Shown: positions 12,628 through 53,346, counted from the stretch's first letter. The stretch is 64,000 nt of DNA from an uncultured Acidobacteriota bacterium (GCA_963711895.1 CAVQFU010000007.1:93406-157405); one strand, 5' to 3'. Numbers and translations are program-made. Notes: generated by a model from the sequence alone, not told the origin.

Positions 12628-13656
12628 GTGTTCACCCCGATCCGCACCGAGCGGCTGCTCATCCGCCCCTTCGAGCTAGACGACCTCGCCGAATACCAGG
12701 CCCGACGCAGCGATCCGGACGTGGCCCGCTATCAGGACTGGGAGCTCCCGTATCCCATGGAACGCGCAGAGAAGGTCGTTTCCGCGCAGGCGGCAATGGA
12801 CGGGCCCGAGAACGACAAGTGGTGGATGGCTGTGGTGTGCGATCCCGATACCGGCGAGGTCTTCGGAGACGTTGGGGCGGAGCTTTCATGGAAGGGTCGT
12901 TCCGCCGAAGTTGGCTACACCTTTGCCAAGGAGCATTGGGGGAAGGGGTATGCGGCAGAGGCATTGCATGCGTTGGTCCGATACCTGTTCGAGGAGCTCG
13001 CCGTGACCAGGGCGTTCGGCATGCTCCATCCGGAAAACCCGGCCTCGGCCATGGTCCTGGAGCGGACGGGATTCCTCTTCGAGGGCGAGACCAAGTCGTC
13101 GTTCTGGGTGGGCGACGAGCTGTCGGACGACTGGATCTACGGGATGACGAGGCCGGATTGGGAGACCTGGCGTGACCGTCCCCGGCATCCGCCTGACTCG
13201 GTGCACCTGATCGAGGTGACCGCCGAGAACGAAGCGACCGTTGCGGGTCTCCGCACCCACCGGACGCAGGAGGACTTCGTGGCCCCGATCCTGCGATCGT
13301 TCGCCGACGCCCTGTTCCCCGAGATGGTCGACGGGGCGCCGGTCGAGCCGTGGATGCGGGCCGTGATCGCCGACGACGTGATTGTTGGGTTCGTGATGCT
13401 GGCCCTGAGCACCGAGCACCATCCGGAGCCGTTTCTCTGGCGTCTCTTGATCGACCGTCTCCACCAGCGGCGTGGGATCGGGGGCAGGATCCTGGAGCTC
13501 GTCGAGGCCGAGTGCCTGGCGATGGGCGACGAGAGCCTTCTCACCAGTTGGGGCGAGGGCAAGGGCTCACCCCGGCCCTTCTACCTGGCTCACGGCTTCG
13601 TCCCCACCGGCAGGGTGGTCGACGAAGAAACCGAAGGTCGCAAGCGGCTGTCGTGA
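12628..13656 (+). CDS. GNAT family N-acetyltransferase (two GNAT-like halves)
   Basis: Acetyltransferase fold motifs (WGKGYAAEAL; QRRGIGGRILE) in both halves. Confidence 0.7.
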   Translation: MFTPIRTERLLIRPFELDDLAEYQARRSDPDVARYQDWELPYPMERAEKVVSAQAAMDGPENDKWWMAVVCDPDTGEVFGDVGAELSWKGRSAEVGYTFAKEHWGKGYAAEALHALVRYLFEELAVTRAFGMLHPENPASAMVLERTGFLFEGETKSSFWVGDELSDDWIYGMTRPDWETWRDRPRHPPDSVHLIEVTAENEATVAGLRTHRTQEDFVAPILRSFADALFPEMVDGAPVEPWMRAVIADDVIVGFVMLALSTEHHPEPFLWRLLIDRLHQRRGIGGRILELVEAECLAMGDESLLTSWGEGKGSPRPFYLAHGFVPTGRVVDEETEGRKRLS

Positions 13657-13671
13657 AGGGTCGGGTACAGC

Positions 13672-13790
13672 GAACCTCAGGTTCCACGGCCCGTATATGA
13701 AACGAACTGCCTCAGGCTCGACGCAGAGCGTCGGACCCTCGGGAGGCTGAGGCAGTTCGGCCCGCATATGAAACGCAGAACCTGAGGTTC
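13672..13790. promoter_or_regulatory. 119-bp dyad element with internal 17-bp direct repeats, 18 bp upstream of the ligD-pol start
   Basis: GAACCTCAGGTTC (13672-13684) and its reverse complement GAACCTGAGGTTC (13778-13790). AACTGCCTCAGG / CCTGAGGCAGTT inner inverted repeats. GGCCCGTATATGAAACG (13688) and GGCCCGCATATGAAACG (13759) as direct repeats 71 bp apart. Central CGACGC...GCGTCG mini-palindrome. Confidence 0.4.
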
Positions 13791-13808
13791 GACCTAGGTT
13801 TGGTGTGA

Positions 13809-14717: not shown

Positions 14718-16226
14718 GTGCTCCTGGCCGATCTCGTCGCTGTCTCCGCCTCGGTCTCCGCGACGAGGGCTCGTTCCGAGAAGATCGCGTTGCTCGCCGC
14801 GATGCTTTGCCGGCTCGCCCCAGATGAAGCGGCACCCGCAGTTTCCTTTTTGAGCGGAAAGCCACGACAAGACCGGCTGGGAGTGGGATGGACGACGGTC
14901 TACGCCATCGAAGCCGCCGCTGCGAAGGAACCGTCCCTGGAGATAATCGAAGTCGACGCAACTCTGGAGGACCTGGCAGGCGTGTCCGGACCAGGCTCCA
15001 AGATGACGCGGGAGATGCTCCTCTCCGGGATGTTCGGCCGGGCAACGGAGGCCGAGCAGCGCTTCCTGCGCGATCTCATAGTGCGCAATCTTCGGCAAGG
15101 AGCGTTGGAAGGGGTGATGGCGGACGCCGTCGCAGTTGCCCTGGGAGTGACGCCTGATCGCGTGCGTCGGGCGGCCATGCTGGAGGGCGATCTGGTCACC
15201 GTGTCCTCACGGGCCCTTTCGGAGGGTCCCGACGCCTTGGGGACATCGACGCTTGGGTTGTTCACCCCGGTGCAGCCGATGCTGGCCAAGACCGCCGCCA
15301 CCGCCGGCGAGGCGGTGACCGGGCTGGGTCGCGCCTTCGTTGAGTGGAAGCTCGACGGCGTCCGTATACAGGTGCATCGTGAAGGGACTCGAGTGGCGGT
15401 GTTCACCCGGAACCTGCGAGACATCACCAGCGGAGTTCCCGAGGTAGTCGCGTCGGTGCAGAAATACCCGGCCACGTCGTTCATCCTCGACGGAGAGGCC
15501 CTGTTGTTTGGTCCCTCAGGCCCGGAGCAGTTTCAGGACTCGATGAGCAGGTTCGGAACCGAGGCGTCAGATCAGGCCCCGCCCCTGCGCGCGTTCTATT
15601 TCGACTGCCTCCATCTCGACGGTGTAGATCTGATCGACTTATCGCTTGCCGAGCGCCGGGCCGCGCTGGTGGGCGCGGTACCCGGAGAATCTCTCGTCGG
15701 AGCGGTCCTCACCGATGACCCGGAAGAGGCCGACCGCTTCTTCGAGGATGCGGTAGCCGCCGGGTATGAGGGCGTCGTGGTCAAGGATCCGGACCAGCCT
15801 TATGAGGCCGGTCGACGCGGATCGGGCTGGCTCAAAGTCAAACCGACTCATACCCTCGACCTTCTGGTCCTGGCCGCCGAGTGGGGATCCGGGCGCCGGG
15901 AGGGCTGGCTATCCAACCTGCATCTCGGTGCCCGTGACCAAGAGGGCGGGTACGTCATGCTGGGCAAGACGTTCAAGGGGCTTACCGACGAGATGCTGGG
16001 GTGGCAGACCGAGCGATTTCTCGAAATCGAAGATCACCGCAGCCGGAACACCGTGTTTCTGAAGCCCAGGATCGTCTATGAGATCGCCTTTGACGGCGTG
16101 CAGCGGAGCACGCGTTATCCGGGCGGTGTGGCCCTCCGTTTTGCCCGGGTCAAGCGATATCGCGAAGACAAAGGGCCAGAGGACGCCGACACCATCGAGA
16201 CGGTGCGCAGTTTCGCTCGCAGCTAG
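14718..16226 (+). CDS. ATP-dependent DNA ligase (LigD ligase-domain / LigC-like)
   Basis: Adenylation motif I EWKLDGVRIQVH (KxDG), OB-fold region. GTG start immediately after the Pol gene stop. Confidence 0.85.
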   Translation: MLLADLVAVSASVSATRARSEKIALLAAMLCRLAPDEAAPAVSFLSGKPRQDRLGVGWTTVYAIEAAAAKEPSLEIIEVDATLEDLAGVSGPGSKMTREMLLSGMFGRATEAEQRFLRDLIVRNLRQGALEGVMADAVAVALGVTPDRVRRAAMLEGDLVTVSSRALSEGPDALGTSTLGLFTPVQPMLAKTAATAGEAVTGLGRAFVEWKLDGVRIQVHREGTRVAVFTRNLRDITSGVPEVVASVQKYPATSFILDGEALLFGPSGPEQFQDSMSRFGTEASDQAPPLRAFYFDCLHLDGVDLIDLSLAERRAALVGAVPGESLVGAVLTDDPEEADRFFEDAVAAGYEGVVVKDPDQPYEAGRRGSGWLKVKPTHTLDLLVLAAEWGSGRREGWLSNLHLGARDQEGGYVMLGKTFKGLTDEMLGWQTERFLEIEDHRSRNTVFLKPRIVYEIAFDGVQRSTRYPGGVALRFARVKRYREDKGPEDADTIETVRSFARS

Positions 16227-18193
16227 GCCGGGGTCTTCCAGTCGATGGTGTGGAGCTTCACCGCGCCGTCGATCCCTTTGAGCTCGACGTCCCTTCCCTC
16301 GGAGACGCCGTATGAGATCGAATCGACTGTCTGTAGCGCGGCCTCGGAGATGACGATCTCGTCGGCATCCGCCGCAGCGCTCACCCGGGCGGCGCGATGC
16401 ACACCGAGTCCCCGGTAGTCGCTGCCATCCGTCGTGGCCTCGTCGGTGTGAAGCCCGATTCGGACCGAAGGGGCGAACCCCTGGTCGCGCGAGTGTTCGG
16501 CGAGACGACGCTGGATGGCCACAGCAGCCTCCACGGCATCGGTGCCCCGGTCGAAGCTCACGAAGAAGCCGTCGCCGGTGTGGCTCACCTCGGTCCCGTG
16601 ATGCTCGACGAAGGCAGCCCGCAAGATGCGATCGTGGGACGCGAGAAGCGATTCCCATTTCGCATCCCCGATCAAGCTCACCAGGTCGGTCGAGGTGACG
16701 ATGTCGGTGAACATGAAGGTCTTGGTGACCCGAGAGCGTTCCGCTTCCGCCCCGCCGAGGCCGGAGATGATCGAGTCCAGCCGGCGCAGGTCGAGGGCTG
16801 CGCCGAGCTTCTCGAACACGGATCGGGCAGCGCCGAGCTCCATCCGGGCCTGGCTCTCGTCCCCGGCGCCGAGATAGGCCTCGCCGAGGAGGACCCGGGC
16901 CTTTGCGCCCTCGTAGGGGAACCCGACCTCCCGCCATAGGCGCCCTGCCTTGGTCAACTCGCGAATCGCCCCTGCATGATCGGCTTCGCCCAGCAGCACG
17001 GCTCCTCGGGCGGTCAGTGCCACTGCCTCGAACGCCGGTCGCTGGTATTCCTCCGCGATCCGCTCCAAGTCCTCTGTTGCTACCCGAGCGGTATCGAGGT
17101 CGCCGCGGGTCAGCGCCACCTCCACCTGGGCGGGCAGGGTCCTGGATCTCATGATCAGGTCGGCTCCGAGCCCGTCTTCCCCGCCGGCGAGACTTCGCTC
17201 CAGTGACTTCGCCGCCTCATCGGCCTGGCCCCGGGCCAGCATCAACAAGGCGAGCCCGGGTTGGGGGTCCACACCATGCTCGTAGGCCATGGCGAACGCG
17301 GCCTCGGCGCCGGCGAGATCACCCATGTGGAGTCGGATCTCGCCCACCTCGTACTGCCCGTGCCCGACCCCGTCGAGCATGTGATATCGCTCCAGCTCCT
17401 GACAAGCGCTGAGAGCTTCCTGCTCGGCCTCGGTCCAGTTCCCTTTGAGACGCTTCAGCTCGGCGCGGTGGACCCGGCACACCCCTGAATACCCGCCCAC
17501 CGAGTGCCGGTTCATCCATCGGTCCGCCTCTTCGGTCCACTCTCCGGCACGTCCAAAGTCGCCGACGTCCCGACAGGCCGAGATGGTCACGCAGTAGACG
17601 TCGCTGGCCGATCGGAGGCTGGCGTCCCCGGACAGGGCCACCGAGGTCGCCTCGTCGATCAGGGCAAGCCCTTCTGTCCAATCACCCTTGGCCAGCAAGG
17701 CGTATCCCTTTAACACCTGCGCCTGGGACTCGGCATCGCGGTTTCCGGTGCGGCGGGCGAGCTCTAGGACCTCCTCGGCCACCGCGATGCCCTCGTCCAG
17801 GTCTCTTCGTATCCCGATGGCCTCGAAGACATCCATGACCTTCAACGACGCATGTACGGTCGATTCGGGTTGGCCTTCCAACAACCTCACTGCCCTTGCC
17901 CGCCAACCGTTGGCCACCGAACCCGCCAGCCTCCGCAACGCCAGATAGGCGAGGAGGACGGCGACCCTGGCCGCATCAATCGGCATGTCGGCACCGTCGT
18001 ACCCGTTGAAGGCCCGTTCTAAGGCGTCGACGGACTCGTCGGGGTGGGCGGTCCACCATGCGGCGTCTGCGAGTAGCTCGAGATCCGCCGCTGACAACGC
18101 CTCTTCGCCGTCGGCCTCGGTCAGCGTTTTCCACGCTTCCTCCCAGGCCTCGCGGCCTGCCGCGGCCCTTCCCGACTCCAGTGTTAGCACCAC
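16223..18193 (-). CDS. Adenylate/guanylate cyclase domain protein with N-terminal TPR-like regulatory region
   Basis: C-terminal class III cyclase domain (FMFTDIVTSTDL...HTGDGFFVSF...GLHTDEA), preceded by about 450 aa of TPR-like helical repeats. Confidence 0.7.
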   Translation of the reverse strand: MVLTLESGRAAAGREAWEEAWKTLTEADGEEALSAADLELLADAAWWTAHPDESVDALERAFNGYDGADMPIDAARVAVLLAYLALRRLAGSVANGWRARAVRLLEGQPESTVHASLKVMDVFEAIGIRRDLDEGIAVAEEVLELARRTGNRDAESQAQVLKGYALLAKGDWTEGLALIDEATSVALSGDASLRSASDVYCVTISACRDVGDFGRAGEWTEEADRWMNRHSVGGYSGVCRVHRAELKRLKGNWTEAEQEALSACQELERYHMLDGVGHGQYEVGEIRLHMGDLAGAEAAFAMAYEHGVDPQPGLALLMLARGQADEAAKSLERSLAGGEDGLGADLIMRSRTLPAQVEVALTRGDLDTARVATEDLERIAEEYQRPAFEAVALTARGAVLLGEADHAGAIRELTKAGRLWREVGFPYEGAKARVLLGEAYLGAGDESQARMELGAARSVFEKLGAALDLRRLDSIISGLGGAEAERSRVTKTFMFTDIVTSTDLVSLIGDAKWESLLASHDRILRAAFVEHHGTEVSHTGDGFFVSFDRGTDAVEAAVAIQRRLAEHSRDQGFAPSVRIGLHTDEATTDGSDYRGLGVHRAARVSAAADADEIVISEAALQTVDSISYGVSEGRDVELKGIDGAVKLHTIDWKTPA

Positions 18194-46596: not shown

Positions 46597-46672
46597 TCCG
46601 TCCCCGTGTATCAGAGTCGGTTCGACCGCCTCTCCCCGTCTGCAAGATCACAACGATTTGGGGAGGGAACGG

Positions 46673-46876
46673 ATGAGCTCTTATTTGAACGAGGCGCTGG
46701 CTTTCGAAAAGATGCAGCGCTATCAGGCCGAAGCCGCGGAGTACCGGCGGATGAAGGCCGCACGCTCGGATGAGCCCGGGGCCATGGAGCGGATGATCCA
46801 GGCCATCGGTCGGGGTCTCATGTCGATCGGCGAGTCGTTCAAGGTCGATCGCCGGCCGCGCATCCCCGCAGTCTGA
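46673..46876 (+). CDS. Hypothetical small protein
   Basis: GGGGAGGG 5 nt upstream of ATG; 67 aa, helical composition. Sits between the Vgb-like gene and the TPR-CHAT gene. Confidence 0.4.
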   Translation: MSSYLNEALAFEKMQRYQAEAAEYRRMKAARSDEPGAMERMIQAIGRGLMSIGESFKVDRRPRIPAV

Positions 46877-46976
46877 CGTCTGGGATGGCCGTCGGGCATT
46901 GACACCGACGGTCTGGGGGCCAGAAACGGACCGACCCTCGGGAGTTTCCCGGGGGTCGCTCCGTGTTCGGACAAGG

Positions 46977-49676
46977 TCAGGCACCGAACACGACGAAGGA
47001 CGATCGGAGGGCTCTCTCTGCGTCATCGTCGGAATCCCCATACACCAAGGCCTTGGCCAGGGCCACGGGAGTGGGGTCGCCGGCGGCCAGTCCACGGTGA
47101 AGGGTGACCATCAGATCGGTGGCGGCCTCGTCGTCAATCGGTACCACGGGGGCGACGAGGCTGGAGACGCCCATGCCGATCAGGGCCGACGAAAGCCCCA
47201 GAAGCTCGTCGCCGGCCACGACTTTGGTCACGGCGGTGTCACATGAGCTGAGGACCATCACCGACGGGGGCGTCTTGATCTGCTCGAAGTCATAGACGGT
47301 GAGCGGGCCGTCGTGCATCTGAAGCGATGAGAACGACGGGTTGTCGTGGCGAAAAGTGCCGTGGGCAGCGAGATGAGCGACATCGGACCCCTCGATGTCC
47401 CTCAGCACCAGATCGGTCGTGGCATTGCGGCCGGTTCGCCGTCGATGTCTCTCGTAGAGCCGGGCGATCCTCGCGACCTCCTGGACTGCCCCGGGCAGAT
47501 CGGGCCCGGCAACGAGCGAGGCCATCGGAGTGCCTTTCAGCGTCTTCATCCTGGAAGACGCAACTGTCCAGCTCTCGAGAGAGGGCACGACGGTGAGGAT
47601 CCTCCCCGGGTCCAGCGCCGGCCACGGCAGCCGATGCAAGGCCGCCGTCGGCACCACAGTGATCTCCTCGCCATCGCTTGTCAGGGGATCCAGGAGCCAT
47701 TGCCGCAGCAGCTGGAGAGAACTGTCGATGCCGACCGCAGCCGCCTCGAGGGATCGGGGCGAGCCGGCTCCATGGGCGAGTCTGGTCAGCGAGAAGAGAA
47801 GCGACGAGACCTCATTGGCTGTGCGATCGGCCTCGACCAATCGCTTCAAGCCGATGGACCCGCGGTGCACCGACACCGCGTGGATGTCTCCTCCGTACTT
47901 GAAGTAGGAGATCAATCGTCGATCACCCAACCGATCGACGATGTCCTCGCGGCTGTTCGGGGTGGTGGCCCGAGCTGGACCGTAACCACGGAGATGACGG
48001 CTCACCGCCTTGATCTGGGCTTCGATCTTCGACTCCTGCACGATCAGAGAGTGGGTCGAGCCTCCGGTCACCGCCACCTCCCGGATCTCGGCGTTGATCC
48101 TCCGCAGCTCCGAGAGGAGACGGGTCAGCTCGGGGTCCGATGGCGGCCGCACCGCGGCCACCTGGCTGCTCTCGGATCGCCATGACTCCACCGCCTTCAA
48201 GACGCGCCATGGCGAGCCTGAGGCGACCCCTTGCTCGATGGCGAGGACCGCGAGATCCAGACCGTGGGTGGCGGCATGAGAGCGCAGGTCTGCAGCTCCC
48301 AGAGTCAGCCGGTAATCCCTGATCGCCTTGAAACCGGCCTCGATCGCCCTGGTCGATCCAATCGCGTTTCCCTCAGCCTGGCGGAGCAGGGCCTCAGCGT
48401 GCCAGGCCTTGGCCCGATCCAGCGAGGTTCCTCTCCTGCGAGCTCCCGAAGCGGCGCCGAGTTGCCGACGAGCCTCATCGATGGCGCCATCGCGCATGGC
48501 GATCCGACCGGCCAGCAGCCGACAATGCTGGGACTCGGAGATGAGGCCGATCCCGGCCAGGTCGTCGGCGAGGTGGGCTGCCTTCGACGACGTTCCTCCA
48601 TTCGATTTCTTGGTCTCGAATCGGGCCCGAAGCGAGGCGTATTCGGCCAGAAGGCGCCATGTATGCCGATCTTGCTCGGTGAATTCCGAGGCCGCGATTG
48701 ATGCCGCTTCGAGGGCCTCCTCCGGGCGCCGCGCGGCCAGCGCCACTTCGGCAGCGAGGAGACGGGTTTCGGAGAGATCCGTTTTGTTGTCGGTTCTCTC
48801 CAATCCGGAGATGGCGGCTCGCACCGCCTCCTCGGCCTCCGTATAGAGACCAGCGGCGAGGAGCATCTCGGCGCGATTGGCCCAGAGCACCTCGACCATT
48901 CCCGGTGGACGACCAAGTGCCTCATAGGCTGCCTCGGCACGATCGAACCAGGCGAGTGCTGCTGGCACATCACCCCTTCTCCCTTCCAGAAAGCCGAGAT
49001 TGTGGGCGCATCCAGCCACGATCAAGTCTTGTCCGAGCCGTTCCCCGATCTGGCGAGCCATCTCAAGGTCGGAAACTCCGAGGTCAAGTTCACCGCGATA
49101 GCCGTGGAGCACGCCGCGATTGGAGAGGAGTCGGGCTTCGGCCAGGTGGTCGCCGCTCCTTCGGAGGCCGGCCAAAGCCGATCGGTAACGAACCAGTGCC
49201 TCATCCAGCCGGCCGAGGCGTTGCAGGATCAGCCCGATCTGCATTTCGTTGCGAGCCAGGTCAGCTCCAGACAGGCCTCCTATTGCTTGTTCCGCTTCGT
49301 CCAGGGCTCCCTGCGTATCACCCACGTACAGGAGGACTAGAGCGAGACTCGAGCGGATCTGACTGACGCGCCGGGCCAAGCCTGAGTCGTCTGCGATGGA
49401 CAACGCTCTCCGCAGGGCCTCTTCCGCATCTTCGAGGTCGTTGAGCTGTCGCGCGGCGAGACCTGCTGCCCACCAAGCGACCGCCGTAGCTTCGGGATCG
49501 AGGTCTTGACGAGTGAGCAGTGAGCGCGCGTCTTCGCGGGCCCGCTTCGGATGGTCCTGAACCGAATCGACCACGCGCAGGGCGGATTCCAGGTTGGGAA
49601 TCGGAGGCGCATCGATCACGCCTTGGAGACTAGGTTTTGCCGGTTGCGCCTTGGGGCGCAATACGTGGGAGGCCAA
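46977..49676 (-). CDS. TPR-repeat CHAT-domain protease (caspase-like); alternative GTG start at about 49619
   Basis: About 600 aa of TPR repeats, then C-terminal CHAT domain with His-Cys dyad (DVAHLAAHG ... VMVLSSCDTA). Confidence 0.8.
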   Translation of the reverse strand: MASHVLRPKAQPAKPSLQGVIDAPPIPNLESALRVVDSVQDHPKRAREDARSLLTRQDLDPEATAVAWWAAGLAARQLNDLEDAEEALRRALSIADDSGLARRVSQIRSSLALVLLYVGDTQGALDEAEQAIGGLSGADLARNEMQIGLILQRLGRLDEALVRYRSALAGLRRSGDHLAEARLLSNRGVLHGYRGELDLGVSDLEMARQIGERLGQDLIVAGCAHNLGFLEGRRGDVPAALAWFDRAEAAYEALGRPPGMVEVLWANRAEMLLAAGLYTEAEEAVRAAISGLERTDNKTDLSETRLLAAEVALAARRPEEALEAASIAASEFTEQDRHTWRLLAEYASLRARFETKKSNGGTSSKAAHLADDLAGIGLISESQHCRLLAGRIAMRDGAIDEARRQLGAASGARRRGTSLDRAKAWHAEALLRQAEGNAIGSTRAIEAGFKAIRDYRLTLGAADLRSHAATHGLDLAVLAIEQGVASGSPWRVLKAVESWRSESSQVAAVRPPSDPELTRLLSELRRINAEIREVAVTGGSTHSLIVQESKIEAQIKAVSRHLRGYGPARATTPNSREDIVDRLGDRRLISYFKYGGDIHAVSVHRGSIGLKRLVEADRTANEVSSLLFSLTRLAHGAGSPRSLEAAAVGIDSSLQLLRQWLLDPLTSDGEEITVVPTAALHRLPWPALDPGRILTVVPSLESWTVASSRMKTLKGTPMASLVAGPDLPGAVQEVARIARLYERHRRRTGRNATTDLVLRDIEGSDVAHLAAHGTFRHDNPSFSSLQMHDGPLTVYDFEQIKTPPSVMVLSSCDTAVTKVVAGDELLGLSSALIGMGVSSLVAPVVPIDDEAATDLMVTLHRGLAAGDPTPVALAKALVYGDSDDDAERALRSSFVVFGA

Positions 49677-49693
49677 GAGAAAGTGGGGCCGCC

Positions 49694-51067
49694 GTGATCC
49701 CGTTCGACGCCGCGGAGTACGCCGAATCCATCAATGCCCGGTTGTCAGATCGGCGTATCCGCATCTCGCCCGGAGGTGGTTTTGCCTTCCGATCGGACCA
49801 AGTCAATGTTCGGGTGACACACGGAGCCGGGCAACCGGACTTCCCTGGCTCTCTCGTCCATGATGGCCCGCCGCTTTTTCCTGGGGGGGATTGGGACTAC
49901 TTCCTATTCCAGGTAGGTGACGACGAAGATCCCATTGACGCCGTTGCATCCTGGAACTCCGATCCCATCAACACTGCCACACCGGCCTTCCTCAACCGTG
50001 TGTTCTTCGGCGAGCCGGTCTACTTCGGCAACCCGGTCTACTTCGGCAACCCGGTCTACTTCGGCAACCCGGTCTACTTCGGCAACCCGGTCTACTTCGG
50101 CAACCCCTTCGACCGAAACAGCGCTCGGCCGGCGCTACTCCCCCCGCAGTGGGGGCCGGTGACAGATTGCAGTGCACTCGGGAGACAGCCACGAGTCCTG
50201 ATCGTCGACACCGGGCTCGCCACCGAGCTGATCGATGAAGAGCTCAGGGAGCCGGAACATCCGAGACTGAAGGACTGCGTCAGGGTCCATAGTGAGTGGA
50301 CGACAGCCGACAATGTCTCTGCACCTACCTTCGATTGGTCGAGAACCGACGAAGACGAGGTGGATTACGACGGGGATGGATTCCTCGACAGGCAGGCTGG
50401 GCATGGCACGTTCATTGCCGGGATAATCCGGAGCATCGCTCCCAACGCGGAGATCTGGATCCGTGGCGGTATCTCCAGCTTTGGCGACGGTGACGACTAC
50501 GACATCTCGGCGGCCCTCGTTGCCGCTAGCGAGTTGGCGAAAACCACGGACGGCATTCCGATCGACGTCGTAAATCTGTCGTTGGGCTGCTTCACCGAGG
50601 ATGACCAGAGCCCTAGCCCTTCGATCCTCGCCGACACGATCGTCCCGATGCAGGCTCAGGGAACCGTGTTCGTGGCCGCTGCCGGGAACGCGGGTTCCTG
50701 CCACAAGTTCTGGCCGGCTGCACTCGACGGTGTGATCGGAGTAGGCGCCACCTACTGCGGAAAGAGAGCATGGTTCTCCAATTTCGGTGAATGGGTCAAA
50801 GCTTGTGCTCCGGGGGTGGATGTCGTGAGCACCTTTCTGTTCCATGACGGTCCGGCATCGAGCATCGCCGGCGTCGATCCGGATCAATACGAAGGCTGGG
50901 CTGTGTGGTCGGGCACGTCGTTTGCAGCGCCGAAGGTCGCAGCCGAAATCGCCAGACGGATGTGCACCGAGGGGGAGGATGCCCTCGCCGCTGCAGCTGC
51001 GGTATGTCCGGATGACCCGGAGCCGCGTCTCGTTGTGGAAGGTCTGGGAATTCACATAGACGTCTGA
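49694..51067 (+). CDS. S8-family subtilisin-like serine peptidase with N-terminal (PVYFGN)x5 repeat region
   Basis: Asp (VLIVDTGL), His (GHGTFIAGIIRS), Ser (GTSFAAPKVAAEIAR) catalytic motifs. Start placed at GTG (VIPFDAAEY) because the ATG at 49637 would overlap the divergent CHAT gene start. Confidence 0.8.
   Translation: MIPFDAAEYAESINARLSDRRIRISPGGGFAFRSDQVNVRVTHGAGQPDFPGSLVHDGPPLFPGGDWDYFLFQVGDDEDPIDAVASWNSDPINTATPAFLNRVFFGEPVYFGNPVYFGNPVYFGNPVYFGNPVYFGNPFDRNSARPALLPPQWGPVTDCSALGRQPRVLIVDTGLATELIDEELREPEHPRLKDCVRVHSEWTTADNVSAPTFDWSRTDEDEVDYDGDGFLDRQAGHGTFIAGIIRSIAPNAEIWIRGGISSFGDGDDYDISAALVAASELAKTTDGIPIDVVNLSLGCFTEDDQSPSPSILADTIVPMQAQGTVFVAAAGNAGSCHKFWPAALDGVIGVGATYCGKRAWFSNFGEWVKACAPGVDVVSTFLFHDGPASSIAGVDPDQYEGWAVWSGTSFAAPKVAAEIARRMCTEGEDALAAAAAVCPDDPEPRLVVEGLGIHIDV
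50015..50104 (+). repeat. Five perfect 18-bp tandem repeats (ccggtctacttcggcaac) inside the S8 peptidase gene, encoding PVYFGN x5
   Basis: Read directly from sequence at 50015-50104; copies are identical at DNA level. Preceded by a degenerate copy (FFGE) and followed by PF. Confidence 0.85.
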
Positions 51068-51093
51068 TCCGGAGGCGTGAAAGATTCCCGTAT

Positions 51094-51732
51094 TTGGCGG
51101 CGGGACGGAGCGTCTTCCTTCATACCATGACGCCCATGGCATCCTTGGCGCGAGCCACCCATGGCGAACTGTTGACGCTGGCTGCCGCCGGTGATCAACC
51201 TGCCTGGAACGAATTGGTCGACCGGTTCAGCCAGATGGTCTGGTCCATCGCCCGCAGTTTCAGACTCGACGACGCCACGGCCAAGGATGTGAGCCAGACG
51301 GTCTGGCTTCGTCTCGTCGAGAACATCCAACGCATCGACGACCCGGAGCGGTTGCCGGGATGGCTCGCCACCACCTGTCGCCGTGAGGCCCTTCGAGTGA
51401 GGGGGATACGCGAGCGCTCGGTTCCGACCGACTTCCAGTACGACATCCCCGACGAATCTCCGTCGCTGGAAGCGATGCTGGTCGAGGACGAGGAGGCCAG
51501 GGAGGTGGTCGCTGCCTTCGCCACCCTCAGCGAAGACTGCCAACAGCTCCTCCGGCTGCTGACGACCGACCCGCCCCTGAGCTACGAAGAGATCTCAGAG
51601 ATCATCGGTCGGCCGATCGGCAGCTTGGGGCCGACCAGATCCAGGTGTCTCGAGCGGCTCAAGGCTGCTTTTTCGGCGCGTATCAGCGGGGCCGGAAACG
51701 ACTCTTTCGACTCAGGAGATGATGCCGAATGA
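51094..51732 (+). CDS. ECF-type sigma-70 family RNA polymerase sigma factor
   Basis: Region 2 (LAAAGDQPAWNELVDRFSQMVWSIARSF...DVSQTVWLRLV) and region 4 HTH (LSYEEISEIIGRPIGSLGPTRSRCLERLK). Confidence 0.8.
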   Translation: MAAGRSVFLHTMTPMASLARATHGELLTLAAAGDQPAWNELVDRFSQMVWSIARSFRLDDATAKDVSQTVWLRLVENIQRIDDPERLPGWLATTCRREALRVRGIRERSVPTDFQYDIPDESPSLEAMLVEDEEAREVVAAFATLSEDCQQLLRLLTTDPPLSYEEISEIIGRPIGSLGPTRSRCLERLKAAFSARISGAGNDSFDSGDDAE

Positions 51733-51920
51733 TGGAGTCGACACCGCAGCACGAAGAGATGTTGGTATCGCTGATCCAGCAAGGACTGGAGGAAGCCGAT
51801 AGACCGCCGGCGGATGTGACCGCTTTCGCCAAGGCGGTTTTTTCGTGGCGTACCATCGACGCTGAATTGGCTTGGGTCTCCTACGACCTTCCGAACGAGG
51901 AGATGAGCCCCGATGAGTGA
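51729..51920 (+). CDS. Small protein, truncated paralog of the downstream gene (possible anti-sigma-like factor)
   Basis: ATGA overlap with sigma factor stop. 63 aa closely similar to the N-terminal 55 aa of 51913..52371 (STPQHEEMLVSLIQQGLEEADRPPADVTAFAKAVFSWRTIDAELAWVSYD vs STSQHEERLLSMLRQGLDESDPAPADVTDFAKVALSWQTIDADLAQLTYD). Confidence 0.45.
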   Translation: MMESTPQHEEMLVSLIQQGLEEADRPPADVTAFAKAVFSWRTIDAELAWVSYDLPNEEMSPDE

Positions 51921-52371
51921 ATCGACCAGCCAGCACGAAGAGAGGCTTCTGTCGATGCTTCGTCAGGGACTCGACGAATCGGACCCGGCGCCGGCCGATG
52001 TGACCGATTTCGCCAAGGTCGCCCTGTCTTGGCAGACCATCGACGCCGACCTGGCCCAGCTCACCTACGACTCGATCGAGGAGTCGAATTCGTCCACGGT
52101 TCGGGGCGTTGCCATTGCCCGCATGCTCGCCTTCGAGGCTGGGGAATGGACGATCGACCTCGAGCACGATCCGGCCACCGGCTACCTGATGGGCCAGATC
52201 GAGCCAGCAGGCGTGATAACCGTCGAACTGCATGTTCTCGACACCGTCCTCGTCGCCGATACGGACGAGCAGGGCCGTTTTTCCTTCGAGGGGATCCAGT
52301 CCGGGCCCTTTGCGCTCGTCATCCGTTTCCAAGGGGACGAAACCGTCAAGACTGAGTGGGTCATCCTCTGA
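51913..52371 (+). CDS. Protein with N-terminal domain shared with the upstream paralog plus C-terminal CarbopepD_reg-like beta-sandwich (possible anti-sigma-like factor)
   Basis: ATGAGTGA overlap with previous ORF. C-terminal VLVADTDEQGRFSFEGIQSGPFALVI resembles the CarbopepD_reg motif. Confidence 0.55.
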   Translation: MSESTSQHEERLLSMLRQGLDESDPAPADVTDFAKVALSWQTIDADLAQLTYDSIEESNSSTVRGVAIARMLAFEAGEWTIDLEHDPATGYLMGQIEPAGVITVELHVLDTVLVADTDEQGRFSFEGIQSGPFALVIRFQGDETVKTEWVIL

Positions 52372-52475
52372 ACCCTGGACGGGTCTCACTTTCGGTATCA
52401 GCGCCGGGGCCATCTCCTCTCCATTGATGAATCGTCGTCAACCGACGACGAGCCGTCAGCGAGGAAAGGCGCGAC

Positions 52476-52661
52476 ATGACCAACATGTCCGAATCCCAGG
52501 AACCGAGGAACACCCGGCGCTGGGCTTGGACGGTTCGCCCCATCGAGCAGCTCGACAACCCCGTGCAGAGGTGGTTGGGCAACCGCTCGAAGGAGAACCG
52601 GCTCCAGGTGAAGCACCGGTCTCAGCTCCTGCCACGCCTCATTGTTCGCCCCGCCGTCTGA
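52476..52661 (+). CDS. Hypothetical small basic protein
   Basis: GAGGAAAGG RBS 8 nt upstream; followed by a strong terminator hairpin at 52697-52726. Confidence 0.3.
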   Translation: MTNMSESQEPRNTRRWAWTVRPIEQLDNPVQRWLGNRSKENRLQVKHRSQLLPRLIVRPAV

Positions 52662-52696: not shown

Positions 52697-52726
52697 GAAG
52701 ACCCCCACCCTCGGGTGGGGGTCTTC
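52697..52726 (+). terminator. Rho-independent terminator hairpin (GAAGACCCCCACCC-TCG-GGTGGGGGTCTTC) followed by TCTT
   Basis: Perfect 13-bp GC-rich stem, 3-nt loop, U-rich tail on + strand; lies between convergent gene ends. Confidence 0.5.
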
Positions 52727-52809: not shown

Positions 52810-53253
52810 TCAGGGCATCCGGTTGTCCCATTCCGGCTGATTCAGCTCGGTCGGCTGCGACACGGTGGTCGGTTGGACGATGCTCGGAACGTAGATCTGC
52901 TCATCGAGTTTGTCGATCAGCATGCTCGTCCGGGTCTCGGGGTTTGTCCCGGGATACGCATTGTTCTGCCTGGCCAACTCCATCTTGGTCGCCTCGATGT
53001 TGAAGGCCGGATGTGACTCCGCCTTGACCTGTGCGGCCAGCTCGTTGAGCCGGACCAGTTCGTCGTAGCGAGCGTCAGCGATCTGAGCCGCTCGGGTCTG
53101 GGCATCGGTGGCGGTGACGTCAGGCCCCTGATTGACAGCGAACACGAAGCCGGCGGCGATGACGACGGCCAGACCGGCCGCCGCAAAACCGAGGCCCTTG
53201 CCCGAACGCCCCGCTCTGGTGGTGGTACCCGAATGGGTAGCACTTGTGGACAT
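52810..53253 (-). CDS. Hypothetical membrane-anchored protein
   Basis: N-terminal TM helix (GLGFAAAGLAVVIAAGFVFAV) then about 100 aa extracytoplasmic region. Confidence 0.5.
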   Translation of the reverse strand: MSTSATHSGTTTRAGRSGKGLGFAAAGLAVVIAAGFVFAVNQGPDVTATDAQTRAAQIADARYDELVRLNELAAQVKAESHPAFNIEATKMELARQNNAYPGTNPETRTSMLIDKLDEQIYVPSIVQPTTVSQPTELNQPEWDNRMP

Positions 53254-53346
53254 GGTCTCTCCCTTCCCGTACAGGGGGCGATTTGCCCCCGTCGATTGGT
53301 AGGAGTCGGAGTGGCACGTCCTGATACATGCTCTCGACGCAAAAGA

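Follow-up and report, generated by a model that had tools for sequence, protein, structure and literature searches.

What does a caspase-like cysteine protease do beside a subtilisin and a sigma factor? The question is raised by a locus in a 64,000-nucleotide (nt) stretch of DNA recorded as coming from an uncultured Acidobacteriota bacterium (GCA_963711895.1 CAVQFU010000007.1:93406-157405). We refer to this whole stretch as ‘the window’, and count positions from its first letter. Here, the gene for a TPR-CHAT protease lies opposite a row of genes for an S8 peptidase, a sigma factor of the extracytoplasmic function (ECF) type, a protein of 63 amino acids (aa), and a 152-aa protein that we name P152. 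Judged by its gene context and its promoter motif, the locus is a new member of the sigma factor group ECF54, a group known bioinformatically. Probably, its ECF54 sigma factor and conserved partners work as a cytoplasmic proteolytic switch that releases sigma from P152.

The locus derives from an Acidimicrobiia-type metagenome-assembled genome (MAG). The TPR-CHAT caspase-like cysteine protease (46977-49676, minus strand; 899 aa) is identified by Pfam CHAT (E=2.5e-31) and TPR families, its exact start codon being uncertain. The remaining core genes are on the plus strand: the S8 peptidase gene (49694-51067; Pfam Peptidase_S8 E=9.5e-20), the open reading frame (ORF) of which opens at 49637 with the GTG at 49694 as its likely start; the sigma gene (51094-51732; Sigma70_r2 E=1.9e-10, TIGR02937 E=2.5e-21), with alternative ATG starts at 51127 and 51136; the 63-aa ORF (51729-51920), which BLASTP identifies as a partial duplicate of the 152-aa gene; and the P152 gene itself (51913-52371), defined by family searches and AlphaFold2 modelling. 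A first-pass annotation of this DNA had described just such an arrangement, a TPR-CHAT protein with an intact His/Cys dyad opposite S8, sigma, 63-aa and 152-aa genes, and all of these are present. It had also described the operon as having overlapping stops and starts. These occur between the sigma and 63-aa frames (4 nt) and between the 63-aa and 152-aa frames (8 nt), but not between the S8 and sigma genes, which are 26 nt apart. And it had drawn the module from 46673 to 52371; the five genes do fall within these limits, but the module reaches past 52371 to approximately 53454, with a conserved 61-aa ORF and more cognate promoter motifs. Signal-peptide-like N-termini and transmembrane segments were found in none of the five core proteins.

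Group ECF54 is credited to Huang, Pinto, Fritz & Mascher (2015), as cited in Casas-Pastor et al. (2021; Nucleic Acids Research 49:986, PMC7826278). According to the supplement of the preprint version of the latter (bioRxiv 10.1101/2019.12.11.873521), the group is 100% Actinobacteria. Relative to the sigma gene, a subtilase is placed at +2/-1, CHAT and TPR domains are at +3/-2, and a domain of carboxypeptidase-regulatory-like type is ‘always in position +1’. The same supplement predicts a promoter with GTATCAG in the -35 and CTCC in the -10 element, lists no putative anti-sigma factor, and notes two Cys residues in sigma region 4 in some subgroups. The window locus has all of these traits. Its sigma factor is a minimal ECF protein with the Sigma70_r2 and TIGR02937 signatures; region 4 contains two Cys, the closest relatives of solved structure are SigE chains (E=3e-9), and the named relatives are Actinomycetota. 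The +1 protein is P152, in the window with the 63-aa duplicate inserted between. The S8 gene occupies position -1 and the CHAT gene -2, and their frequencies in related loci (CHAT in 39 and S8 in 36 out of 48) may be set against the published averages of 0.71 and 0.68 copies per ECF. Five sites of the form GTATCA[GA]-N16-CTC[TC] occur at 46.6-53.5 kb, and no protein of the module has an anti-sigma match in Pfam, NCBIfam or the PDB. With both the gene association and the promoter already in the literature (2015 and 2021), the locus is not a novel system, and the protease-gated sigma switch put forward in the first-pass annotation is the published ECF54 hypothesis. Of the labels novel and uncharacterized in that annotation, the first has to be dropped and the second can be kept: our literature search found no experimental characterization.

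P152 served as the anchor in the search for related loci. A word-indexed search returned approximately 51 close clusters, those with a named source being Acidimicrobiia MAGs, and an exhaustive profile search returned 2512 representative clusters at E<=1e-3, of which 1120 also pass E<=1e-10. Among the 150 of these 2512 that were listed, nearly all are 145-170 aa long and match over their full length. A scan of one genome per species with a 12-sequence P152 alignment found 427 loci. We took gene context from the best 80 of these, scanned with profiles of the module's own proteins, and based context counts on the 48 of those 80 that have at least 6 kb on both sides (‘full-flank loci’). The sigma gene is immediately upstream of P152 in every one of the 48. 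CHAT is present in 39 and S8 in 36, S8 never without CHAT, and neither protease occurs within 8 kb in the other nine, which are mostly Jiangellales. The association of sigma, P152, CHAT and S8 is far beyond chance. Nor is it a by-product of one frozen arrangement: using (-) for genes on the strand opposite to sigma and a slash for a change of direction, we encountered CHAT(-) / S8 sigma P152, as in the window; S8(-) / CHAT sigma P152; sigma P152 / CHAT(-) S8(-); sigma P152 S8 CHAT; and S8(-) / sigma P152 CHAT. These five orders are a lower bound. The first-pass annotation regarded the genes as a candidate functional module, and named lack of co-conservation as grounds for giving the idea up; since the module genes stay together across loci, the neighbourhood survey sides with the idea. 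Two loci are rare exceptions to the sigma/P152 rule. In L064, P152, S8 and CHAT are present with no adjacent sigma gene. In L067 (1-9016), P152 / S8(-) / CHAT occur in two tandem copies, no sigma gene is detectable, and one CHAT copy has Tyr in place of the catalytic Cys.

The pattern GTATCA ... CTCT, with a spacer of variable sequence and constant length, was first noticed between the P152 gene and the 61-aa ORF. It was found independently, before comparison with the published ECF54 motif, and the two are the same. A pattern search of the window gave five matches against 0.57 expected, four of them within 46.6-53.5 kb, and a relaxed search added a fifth module site in which the second element is CTCC. 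Counted over the window and 87 related loci, the N17 spacing occurs 157 times, compared with 2-20 times for each other spacing from N12 to N23, an enrichment of approximately 8- to 80-fold. We designate the five module sites P1 to P5, and regard them as candidate ECF54-type promoters. P1 (GTATCAG-N16-CTCT; 46608-46633, plus strand) lies 40 nt upstream of a 67-aa ORF and is conserved at orthologs of that ORF. P2 (51680-51705, plus), which precedes the 63-aa/P152 genes by 24 nt, falls within the 3' end of the sigma gene; its spacer varies in sequence and is fixed in length. P3 (52395-52420, plus) is 56 nt upstream of the 61-aa ORF, and its GTATCA and CTCT elements are invariant in 22 and 29 aligned loci in two alignments. 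For P4 (53429-53454, minus), related loci have minus-strand motifs placed similarly, downstream of the module. P5 (GTATCAG-N16-CTCC; 53302-53327, minus) is the site from the relaxed search, 49 nt upstream of a 147-aa ORF. In 44 of 88 cases, the strict motif precedes the P152-family gene from within the sigma gene's 3' end, with 24 nt as the modal distance.

What kind of protein, then, is P152? AlphaFold2 models helices at residues 3-22 and 30-57 at low confidence (predicted local distance difference test, pLDDT, ~50), followed by a disordered linker (58-72) and a confident eight-stranded beta-sandwich (73-151). The CarbopepD_reg-like domain claimed for it in the first-pass annotation is sub-threshold in Pfam (22 bits against a cutoff of 32), so the family match falls short while the sandwich fold is borne out by the model. 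Conservation peaks elsewhere, at W40-R-T-I-D-A-E-L-A-x-L-x-[FY]-D53-S54, then V63-R64 and R70-x-L-[TS]-F74. This stretch covers the end of helix 2 and the linker, and its invariant residues include W40, D44, L47, D53 and R64. D53-S54 and V63-R64 are unrelaxed in loci without CHAT/S8, and the aromatic residue before D53 has been lost in some loci, both with and without CHAT. No Pfam, NCBIfam or PADLOC family matches P152 or the 63-aa protein, nor their N-terminal domains alone at E<=10. A P152-family profile run against all PDB sequences at E<=10 returned spurious DnaK matches only, and thus detected no relationship to Csx30, Csx31 or anti-sigma factors of solved structure. Foldseek searches with the P152 model returned generic immunoglobulin/FN3-like beta-sandwiches, none at E<=0.001, the low-confidence helices being unfit for comparison. 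The small proteins were also considered as class I zinc-binding anti-sigma (ZAS) factors, and this candidate was rejected: both are without cysteine, and have two predicted helices rather than a four-helix domain, no H-x3-C-x2-C motif, and no match to zf-HC2 or RsdA/RskA. That they might be ordinary zinc-binding anti-sigma factors was the other doubt voiced in the first-pass annotation, and the missing Cys/His motif, together with the empty Pfam, NCBIfam and PDB searches, settles it in the module's favour.

The 63-aa protein is 58% identical to P152 residues 1-60 (BLASTP E=1e-22), which upholds the paralogy between the two that had been proposed. Its gene occurs only in the closest relatives (L001, L002, L008, L009 and L010) and is absent from L011 and L012; the copy in L001 looks frameshifted, and the ratio of nonsynonymous to synonymous divergence (dN/dS) against L002 is 0.36. 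These comparisons mark the 63-aa gene as a tandem duplicate, confined to one lineage, of the P152 N-terminal two-helix domain.

Several observations point to P152 as the partner of sigma: the invariant adjacency of their genes, the overlapping or abutting frames, the sigma-type promoter that would drive P152, and their co-divergence. The identities of sigma and of P152 to their window counterparts co-vary across loci (Spearman 0.74, n=77); for sigma and CHAT there is no co-variation (Spearman -0.21, n=48). P152 is, on this evidence, a candidate soluble anti-sigma factor.

In the 899-aa protein, the CHAT domain comprises residues 653-876, and the TPR region is matched best by TPR_12 (E=1.9e-20). 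Of the 64 homologs with an alignment at His772 and Cys812, 63 keep this dyad. Maximum 19-residue hydropathy is 1.69, within the CHAT core, and the protein has no transmembrane helix and no anti-sigma domain. It is cytoplasmic, and we propose that it acts as the signal-sensing input protease. A phmmer search against the PDB found generic TPR matches only, and no solved Csx29, separase or DdvA chain. Relatives whose sigma factors are at least 79% identical to that of the window carry CHAT proteins that are either 65-81% or 28-36% identical to the window's. The two CHAT types sit on different sides of the sigma/P152 pair, as is seen when L001, L010 and L014-L017 are compared with L008, L009, L011, L012 and the window (sigma 79-90%; CHAT 28-36% or 73-81% identical to the window's). 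Because relatives so close in sigma carry such strongly differing CHAT proteins on differing sides, the protease cassette appears to have been exchanged between lineages. L047, for its part, has a CHAT protein 55% identical to the window's, yet a sigma factor only 54% identical. And in L002 (10709-13551, minus strand), CHAT and S8 lie downstream of sigma/P152 in pieces, as a 117-aa CHAT fragment and small ORFs; these are either pseudogenes or frameshift errors of a long-read MAG.

The S8 protein has all of the catalytic residues of a subtilisin (D172, H237, the oxyanion N332, and S409), and the His, Asn and Ser are conserved in homologs. Its AlphaFold2 model (predicted template modelling score, pTM, 0.90) has a beta-alpha-beta-beta-alpha-beta N-domain (residues 1-105) packed on the catalytic domain, and the top PDB matches of this model in Foldseek, over 440-485 aligned columns, are unautoprocessed pro-subtilisins (pro-subtilisin E, 3WHI, and pro-Tk-subtilisin, 2E1P). 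The Pfam I9 model does not match the prodomain, and no hydrophobic N-terminus was found. Because a signal peptide is absent, the zymogen should be cytoplasmic; by model and by sequence, then, the S8 protein is a cytoplasmic pro-subtilisin zymogen. Immediately after the prodomain comes an 18-nt tandem array (50005-50106, plus strand; 5.7 copies at 97% identity by TRF, Tandem Repeats Finder) that encodes (PVYFGN)x5.7 at residues 107-142. The repeats copy the last strand of the prodomain, reading NRVFFG and then (E/N)PVYFG iterated, and the DNA repeat family reaches into the sequence for the end of the prodomain. In the model, the repeat region is disordered (pLDDT 40-47). Because divergent S8 homologs hold the same kind of array, GNP[VAS][YF][LFI] or GHPNYI in 2-8 copies, the array is a conserved feature of variable length. 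The units are near-identical within one S8 gene and differ between genes (PVYFGN, PAYLGN, PSFFGN and PNYIGH, in homologs from L005 to L077). This within-gene uniformity, taken with the range of 2-8 copies, indicates concerted evolution by slippage at the zymogen processing junction.

The switch that we consider probable would work as follows. Sigma would be made together with P152, the N-terminal two-helix domain of which would keep it inactive, P152 thus acting as a soluble anti-sigma factor of a class not previously described. The TPR-CHAT protein and the cytoplasmic pro-subtilisin would form a two-protease input branch. A signal received through the TPR domain would activate CHAT, which would then either remove P152 directly or unlock the S8 zymogen, in which repeats that imitate the prodomain's own processing junction may serve as its tether. 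Cleavage of P152 might fall within the conserved, disordered linker, where the invariant D53-S54 and V63-R64 are possible sites. Sigma, once freed, would transcribe from the GTATCAG-N16-CTC[TC] promoters. Its action on the 63-aa/P152 genes would amount to negative feedback, and its other targets would be the 67-aa and 61-aa ORFs, a short transcript that soon terminates, and the gene for a 147-aa membrane protein. We infer the binding of sigma by P152, its cleavage by either protease, the order in which the proteases act, and the existence of the signal. A fuller version of the idea is more tentative, and we would put it forward as possible rather than probable: that P152 represents a new soluble anti-sigma class, inactivated by a cytoplasmic cascade from TPR-CHAT to a pro-subtilisin that is held shut by tandem copies of its own junction, the whole being a CRISPR-independent, housekeeping counterpart of Craspase with an exchangeable input cassette and a fixed core of sigma, anti-sigma and promoter.

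Several points weigh against the proteolytic switch. P152 has no sequence similarity to any anti-sigma factor of solved structure, and because of this, and of the pLDDT of ~50 of its helices, its binding to sigma is something we infer. Nine of the 48 full-flank loci, as noted, have sigma and P152 with no CHAT or S8 nearby, so that the proteases are dispensable for the core pair or else are encoded elsewhere. The assignment to ECF54 was made by gene context and promoter motif rather than by an ECF Hub profile score, and a full-text literature search for ECF54 found no experimental study of any member. In the ECF54 literature itself, where a 2022 review summarizes it (PMC8999054), the group is treated as having no anti-sigma factor; its regulation through proteolysis is listed as ‘proposed’, and a direct proteolytic attack on sigma is considered. 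Finally, a sigma-dependent promoter in front of P152 fits P152 as the main output of the system equally well as it fits feedback.

The main rival, an idea already published for ECF54, is one that we judge unlikely but well ahead of the others. It supposes that no anti-sigma factor exists, that CHAT and/or S8 degrade or process sigma itself, and that P152 and the small ORFs are simply the regulon. That P152 matches no anti-sigma family, and that in half of the cases the cognate promoter lies directly before it, as it would before a target gene, is what this explanation predicts. The second observation loses some of its force, however, in that the genes for anti-sigma factors commonly belong to the regulons of the ECF sigma factors that they control. 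The invariant adjacency of sigma and P152, their overlapping or abutting frames, and their correlated divergence are typical of sigma/anti-sigma pairs and favour the release of sigma from P152. The Jiangellales supply a milder argument in the same direction: were sigma controlled by proteolysis alone, their sigma/P152 pairs, being without the proteases, would leave sigma unregulated.

A further explanation reverses the direction of control, and makes CHAT and S8 the outputs of sigma, as a stress-induced protein-quality-control pair, for example. The authors of the ECF classification caution that conserved neighbours may be regulators or targets, and in some gene orders CHAT is co-directional with sigma and upstream of it; L017 has a motif at the start of such a CHAT-sigma operon. 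The distribution of the motif speaks otherwise. Strict motifs occur upstream of S8 in only four of 70 cases and upstream of CHAT in one of 74 (for sigma itself, in 12 of 79), and neither the strict nor the relaxed search found an ECF54-type motif in the CHAT/S8 intergenic region of the window. A sigma-70 promoter scan of the same region, in this G+C-rich genome, scored at chance level. Because the promoter almost never precedes them, and because they are catalytically intact and stay linked through rearrangements, CHAT and S8 are better regarded as inputs than as outputs, and we consider the reverse quite improbable.

The first-pass annotation had also entertained a role in conflict, and against this stands the distribution of the module. 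The named taxa among the best 80 of the 427 loci are all Actinomycetota: Acidimicrobiia, Jiangella, Streptosporangiaceae, Mycobacteriales, Thermoleophilia and Egibacteraceae. Among cultured organisms, Nonomuraea gerenzanensis has the full module, in the same gene order as the window, and Jiangella has the sigma/P152 core only. Several Danish MAGs among these 80 loci are labelled Acidobacteriota or only ‘bacterium’. Seven from Microflora Danica (L008, L009, L010, L029, L031, L034 and L042) bear the label ‘uncultured Acidobacteriota bacterium’ despite an Acidimicrobiia-type locus, and that label is probably an error in the records. The module occupies two unrelated chromosomal sites. The first, that of the window, is a slot between a Vgb-lyase-like gene and PNPOx/amine oxidase/GCV_T; the second is between rpoBC and rpsL-rpsG, with two S8 paralogs. 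The second site is seen in three Acidimicrobiia MAG contigs (L005, L006 and L007), in which a paralogous or orthologous module lies by rpoC and/or rpsL-rpsG, and in L007 directly between both; it has two tandem S8 genes, with CHAT, sigma and P152 as one operon, and the spot is an unusual one for an accessory regulator. No copy was found on viral contigs, and the plasmid collection gave a single match, to an 11.85-Mb record of chromosome size, and no mobile copies. From its distribution, the module appears to be vertically inherited across one phylum.

An anti-phage or abortive-infection system that stands by itself, analogous to Craspase but independent of CRISPR, in which infection triggers the proteases, and the regulon or the proteases arrest the cell, sits poorly with this distribution, and we consider it highly improbable. 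The logic is one that the module would have in common with Craspase, DdvA-DdvS and the SAVED-CHAT to PCaspase pathway, and the turnover of the CHAT/S8 cassette among close relatives is typical of conflict genes. PADLOC-DB v2 yields two weak matches, to a generic subtilase model (E=1.4e-12) and to BovA (E=1.9e-4, over ~80 residues), but no full-length defence match, and nothing for sigma or the small proteins. The neighbourhoods, moreover, are conserved housekeeping regions, not defence islands; the 427 loci are in species-representative genomes; and sequence similarity to Csx29, Csx30 or Csx31 is lacking. The window contains no spaced direct-repeat (CRISPR-like) array and no ORF longer than 899 aa. 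Among its large ORFs, to which profiling beyond the module was directed, those checked are Lon, an MMPL transporter, a GMC oxidoreductase, a TPR-adenylate cyclase, an SBP_bac_5 solute-binding protein and DNA ligase; none is a Cas gene. The absence of Cas7-11 and CRISPR arrays noted in the first-pass annotation agrees with these searches; the abortive-infection role that it considered is not supported.

The local regulon would include the small flanking ORFs. The 67-aa ORF (46673-46876, plus strand), downstream of P1, is 44-88% identical across 10 related loci, and it stays on the module's flank in loci with another gene order, or where the module is no longer beside the Vgb-lyase gene. Against its closer relatives its dN/dS is 0.14-0.21, indicating purifying selection. 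That it might belong to the module had been suggested in passing; its travelling with rearranged loci, a dN/dS of ~0.15, and the motif 40 nt upstream now make the case. The 61-aa ORF (52476-52661, plus), downstream of P3 and preceded by a conserved 5' hairpin and ribosome-binding site, lies directly 3' of the P152 gene in approximately 28 loci, with 41-93% identity, and even distant loci preserve its frame together with the motif [DE]NPV.R[WY]LG. Both ORFs are called as genes in public assemblies. The 61-aa ORF is a probable member of the regulon by these signs. The 147-aa ORF (52810-53253, minus), known from translation, with one predicted transmembrane helix and P5 upstream, is a possible one. 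Neither it nor the 67-aa ORF matched a Pfam family.

The 61-aa ORF is also peculiar at the nucleotide level. Its synonymous divergence (dS) is low, 0.07-0.3 compared with 0.8-1.3 in neighbouring genes. Against L008 and L009, it has dS of 0.07-0.11 and dN/dS of up to 0.85-1.1, where the adjacent 152-aa and 67-aa genes have dS of 0.9-1.3. Added constraint at the RNA level, a dual-function RNA, or recent exchange could each account for this. Its leader (52420-52475, plus strand) contains a conserved hairpin, CGTCGTC-N4-GACGACG, of which RNAalifold recovers a weakly supported 5-bp hairpin only, with two pairs that show compensatory change. A CCTCTCC stretch in the leader could pair with the ribosome-binding site, GAGGAAAGG. 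Rfam searches of the window and of the module gave no match, and the leader corresponds to no known RNA. An intrinsic terminator (52707-52722, plus), located by a terminator scan, ends the 61-aa transcription unit, and aligned loci conserve its G+C hairpin and T-rich tail. On the other strand, P4 is followed approximately 55 nt on by a strong terminator-like hairpin (53373-53346, minus; 12 pairs). The product of P4 may be a sigma-dependent RNA of ~80 nt, or an attenuator leader; alternatively, the hairpin may merely terminate the upstream PNPOx gene. Least credible of all the explanations is that S8 and CHAT mature the 67-aa, 61-aa and 63-aa products into peptides, as in a RiPP-like (ribosomally made peptide with post-translational modifications) or signalling-peptide system: S8 does weakly match the PatA/PatG cyanobactin protease model (E=3.7e-8, far under cutoff), several conserved small ORFs flank the module, and the NPV...LGN motif of the 61-aa ORF vaguely resembles the S8 repeat, but no modification enzyme, transporter or signal peptide was found among the module proteins and the large ORFs checked, and the small ORFs are limited to one Acidimicrobiia subclade, whereas CHAT, S8, sigma and P152 are phylum-wide.

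Two further features of the window lie at a distance from the module. One is a 656-aa protein (16223-18193, minus strand) with a MalT-like TPR region and an adenylate/guanylate cyclase domain, which has no evident tie to the module. The other is a 36-nt sequence present in two copies, 81% identical and 71 nt apart (13687-13793, plus), just 3' of an ORF that ends at 13656.

ECF54 is one of few ECF groups without a known regulator, and its control by caspase-like and subtilisin proteases is a published hypothesis. The gene-content reading of this locus was correct, and no new system is discovered here. What is new is the detail: how P152 is built and where it might be cleaved, a zymogen in which the processing junction is repeated, mapped promoters, a swappable cassette, and ORFs of the regulon. 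These details make the ECF54 hypothesis testable, and there are cultured carriers in which to test it, Nonomuraea gerenzanensis for the full module and Jiangella for the core. If the model proposed above is right, a new class of soluble anti-sigma factor would be added to those described; the module would be the first cytoplasmic caspase-like/subtilisin zymogen cascade to gate transcription outside CRISPR systems; and the logic of Craspase would have a housekeeping relative throughout a phylum.

How does the module compare with systems already known? In Type III-E Craspase, Cas7-11 (gRAMP) acts with Csx29, a TPR-CHAT protein, which cleaves Csx30, and Csx30 binds the ECF sigma factor RpoE (PMC10028731). 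The likeness lies in a cytoplasmic TPR-CHAT protease, the gene of which is linked with those for an ECF sigma factor and for a small protein whose disordered linker could be a cleavage target, and in the proposed logic, the proteolytic release of sigma activity. The differences are that the window module is without Cas7-11, CRISPR RNA or a CRISPR array, has a second protease in the form of the S8 zymogen, and has a housekeeping context. Homology to Craspase, to which the first-pass annotation had likened the module, received no support: the module proteins have no detected sequence similarity to Csx29, Csx30 or Csx31, the CHAT protein (compared by sequence only) finding no solved Csx29, and the P152 family no Csx30, Csx31 or anti-sigma chain in the PDB. 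In the DdvA-DdvS system of Myxococcus xanthus, a TPR-CHAT domain with a His-Cys dyad is likewise tied to an ECF sigma factor, and cleavage by CHAT is proposed, not demonstrated (PMC11506125). DdvA, however, is one polypeptide, with a zinc-binding anti-sigma domain at its N terminus, a helix that spans the membrane, and TPR-CHAT on the periplasmic side, and it acts with RseP (PMC11506125). The window CHAT is a separate, soluble protein with neither transmembrane helix nor zinc motif, the candidate anti-sigma factor being a different protein; and DdvS controls CBASS (cyclic-oligonucleotide-based anti-phage signalling system) and CRISPR genes, which the sigma factor of the window module does not. 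In the SAVED-CHAT to PCaspase pathway of type III-B CRISPR systems, as described in its preprint (bioRxiv 10.1101/2023.06.23.546230), CHAT tops a cleavage cascade of two proteases, and sigma and anti-sigma factors are mentioned. The trigger there is cyclic oligoadenylate, acting through the SAVED domain, and the second protease is caspase-like. In the window, a TPR array would take the place of the sensor and a subtilisin zymogen that of the second protease, and the cascade would be a conjectural one. By sequence and domain organization, the module is not a member of the Craspase, DdvA-DdvS or SAVED-CHAT systems. With pro-subtilisins that have an I9-type propeptide, its S8 protein shares the packing of prodomain on catalytic domain; it differs in having no signal peptide, and in the repeats (2-8 in the family) inserted at the processing junction. 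From the published group ECF54, nothing essential differs in the window locus. It brings to that group two lineage-specific extras, the 63-aa partial duplicate of the +1 gene, and the flanking 67-aa and 61-aa ORFs with cognate promoters of their own; and on the subtilase's zymogen-and-repeat build, the architecture of the +1 protein, and the exchange of the protease cassette, it speaks where the published group descriptions consulted are silent.

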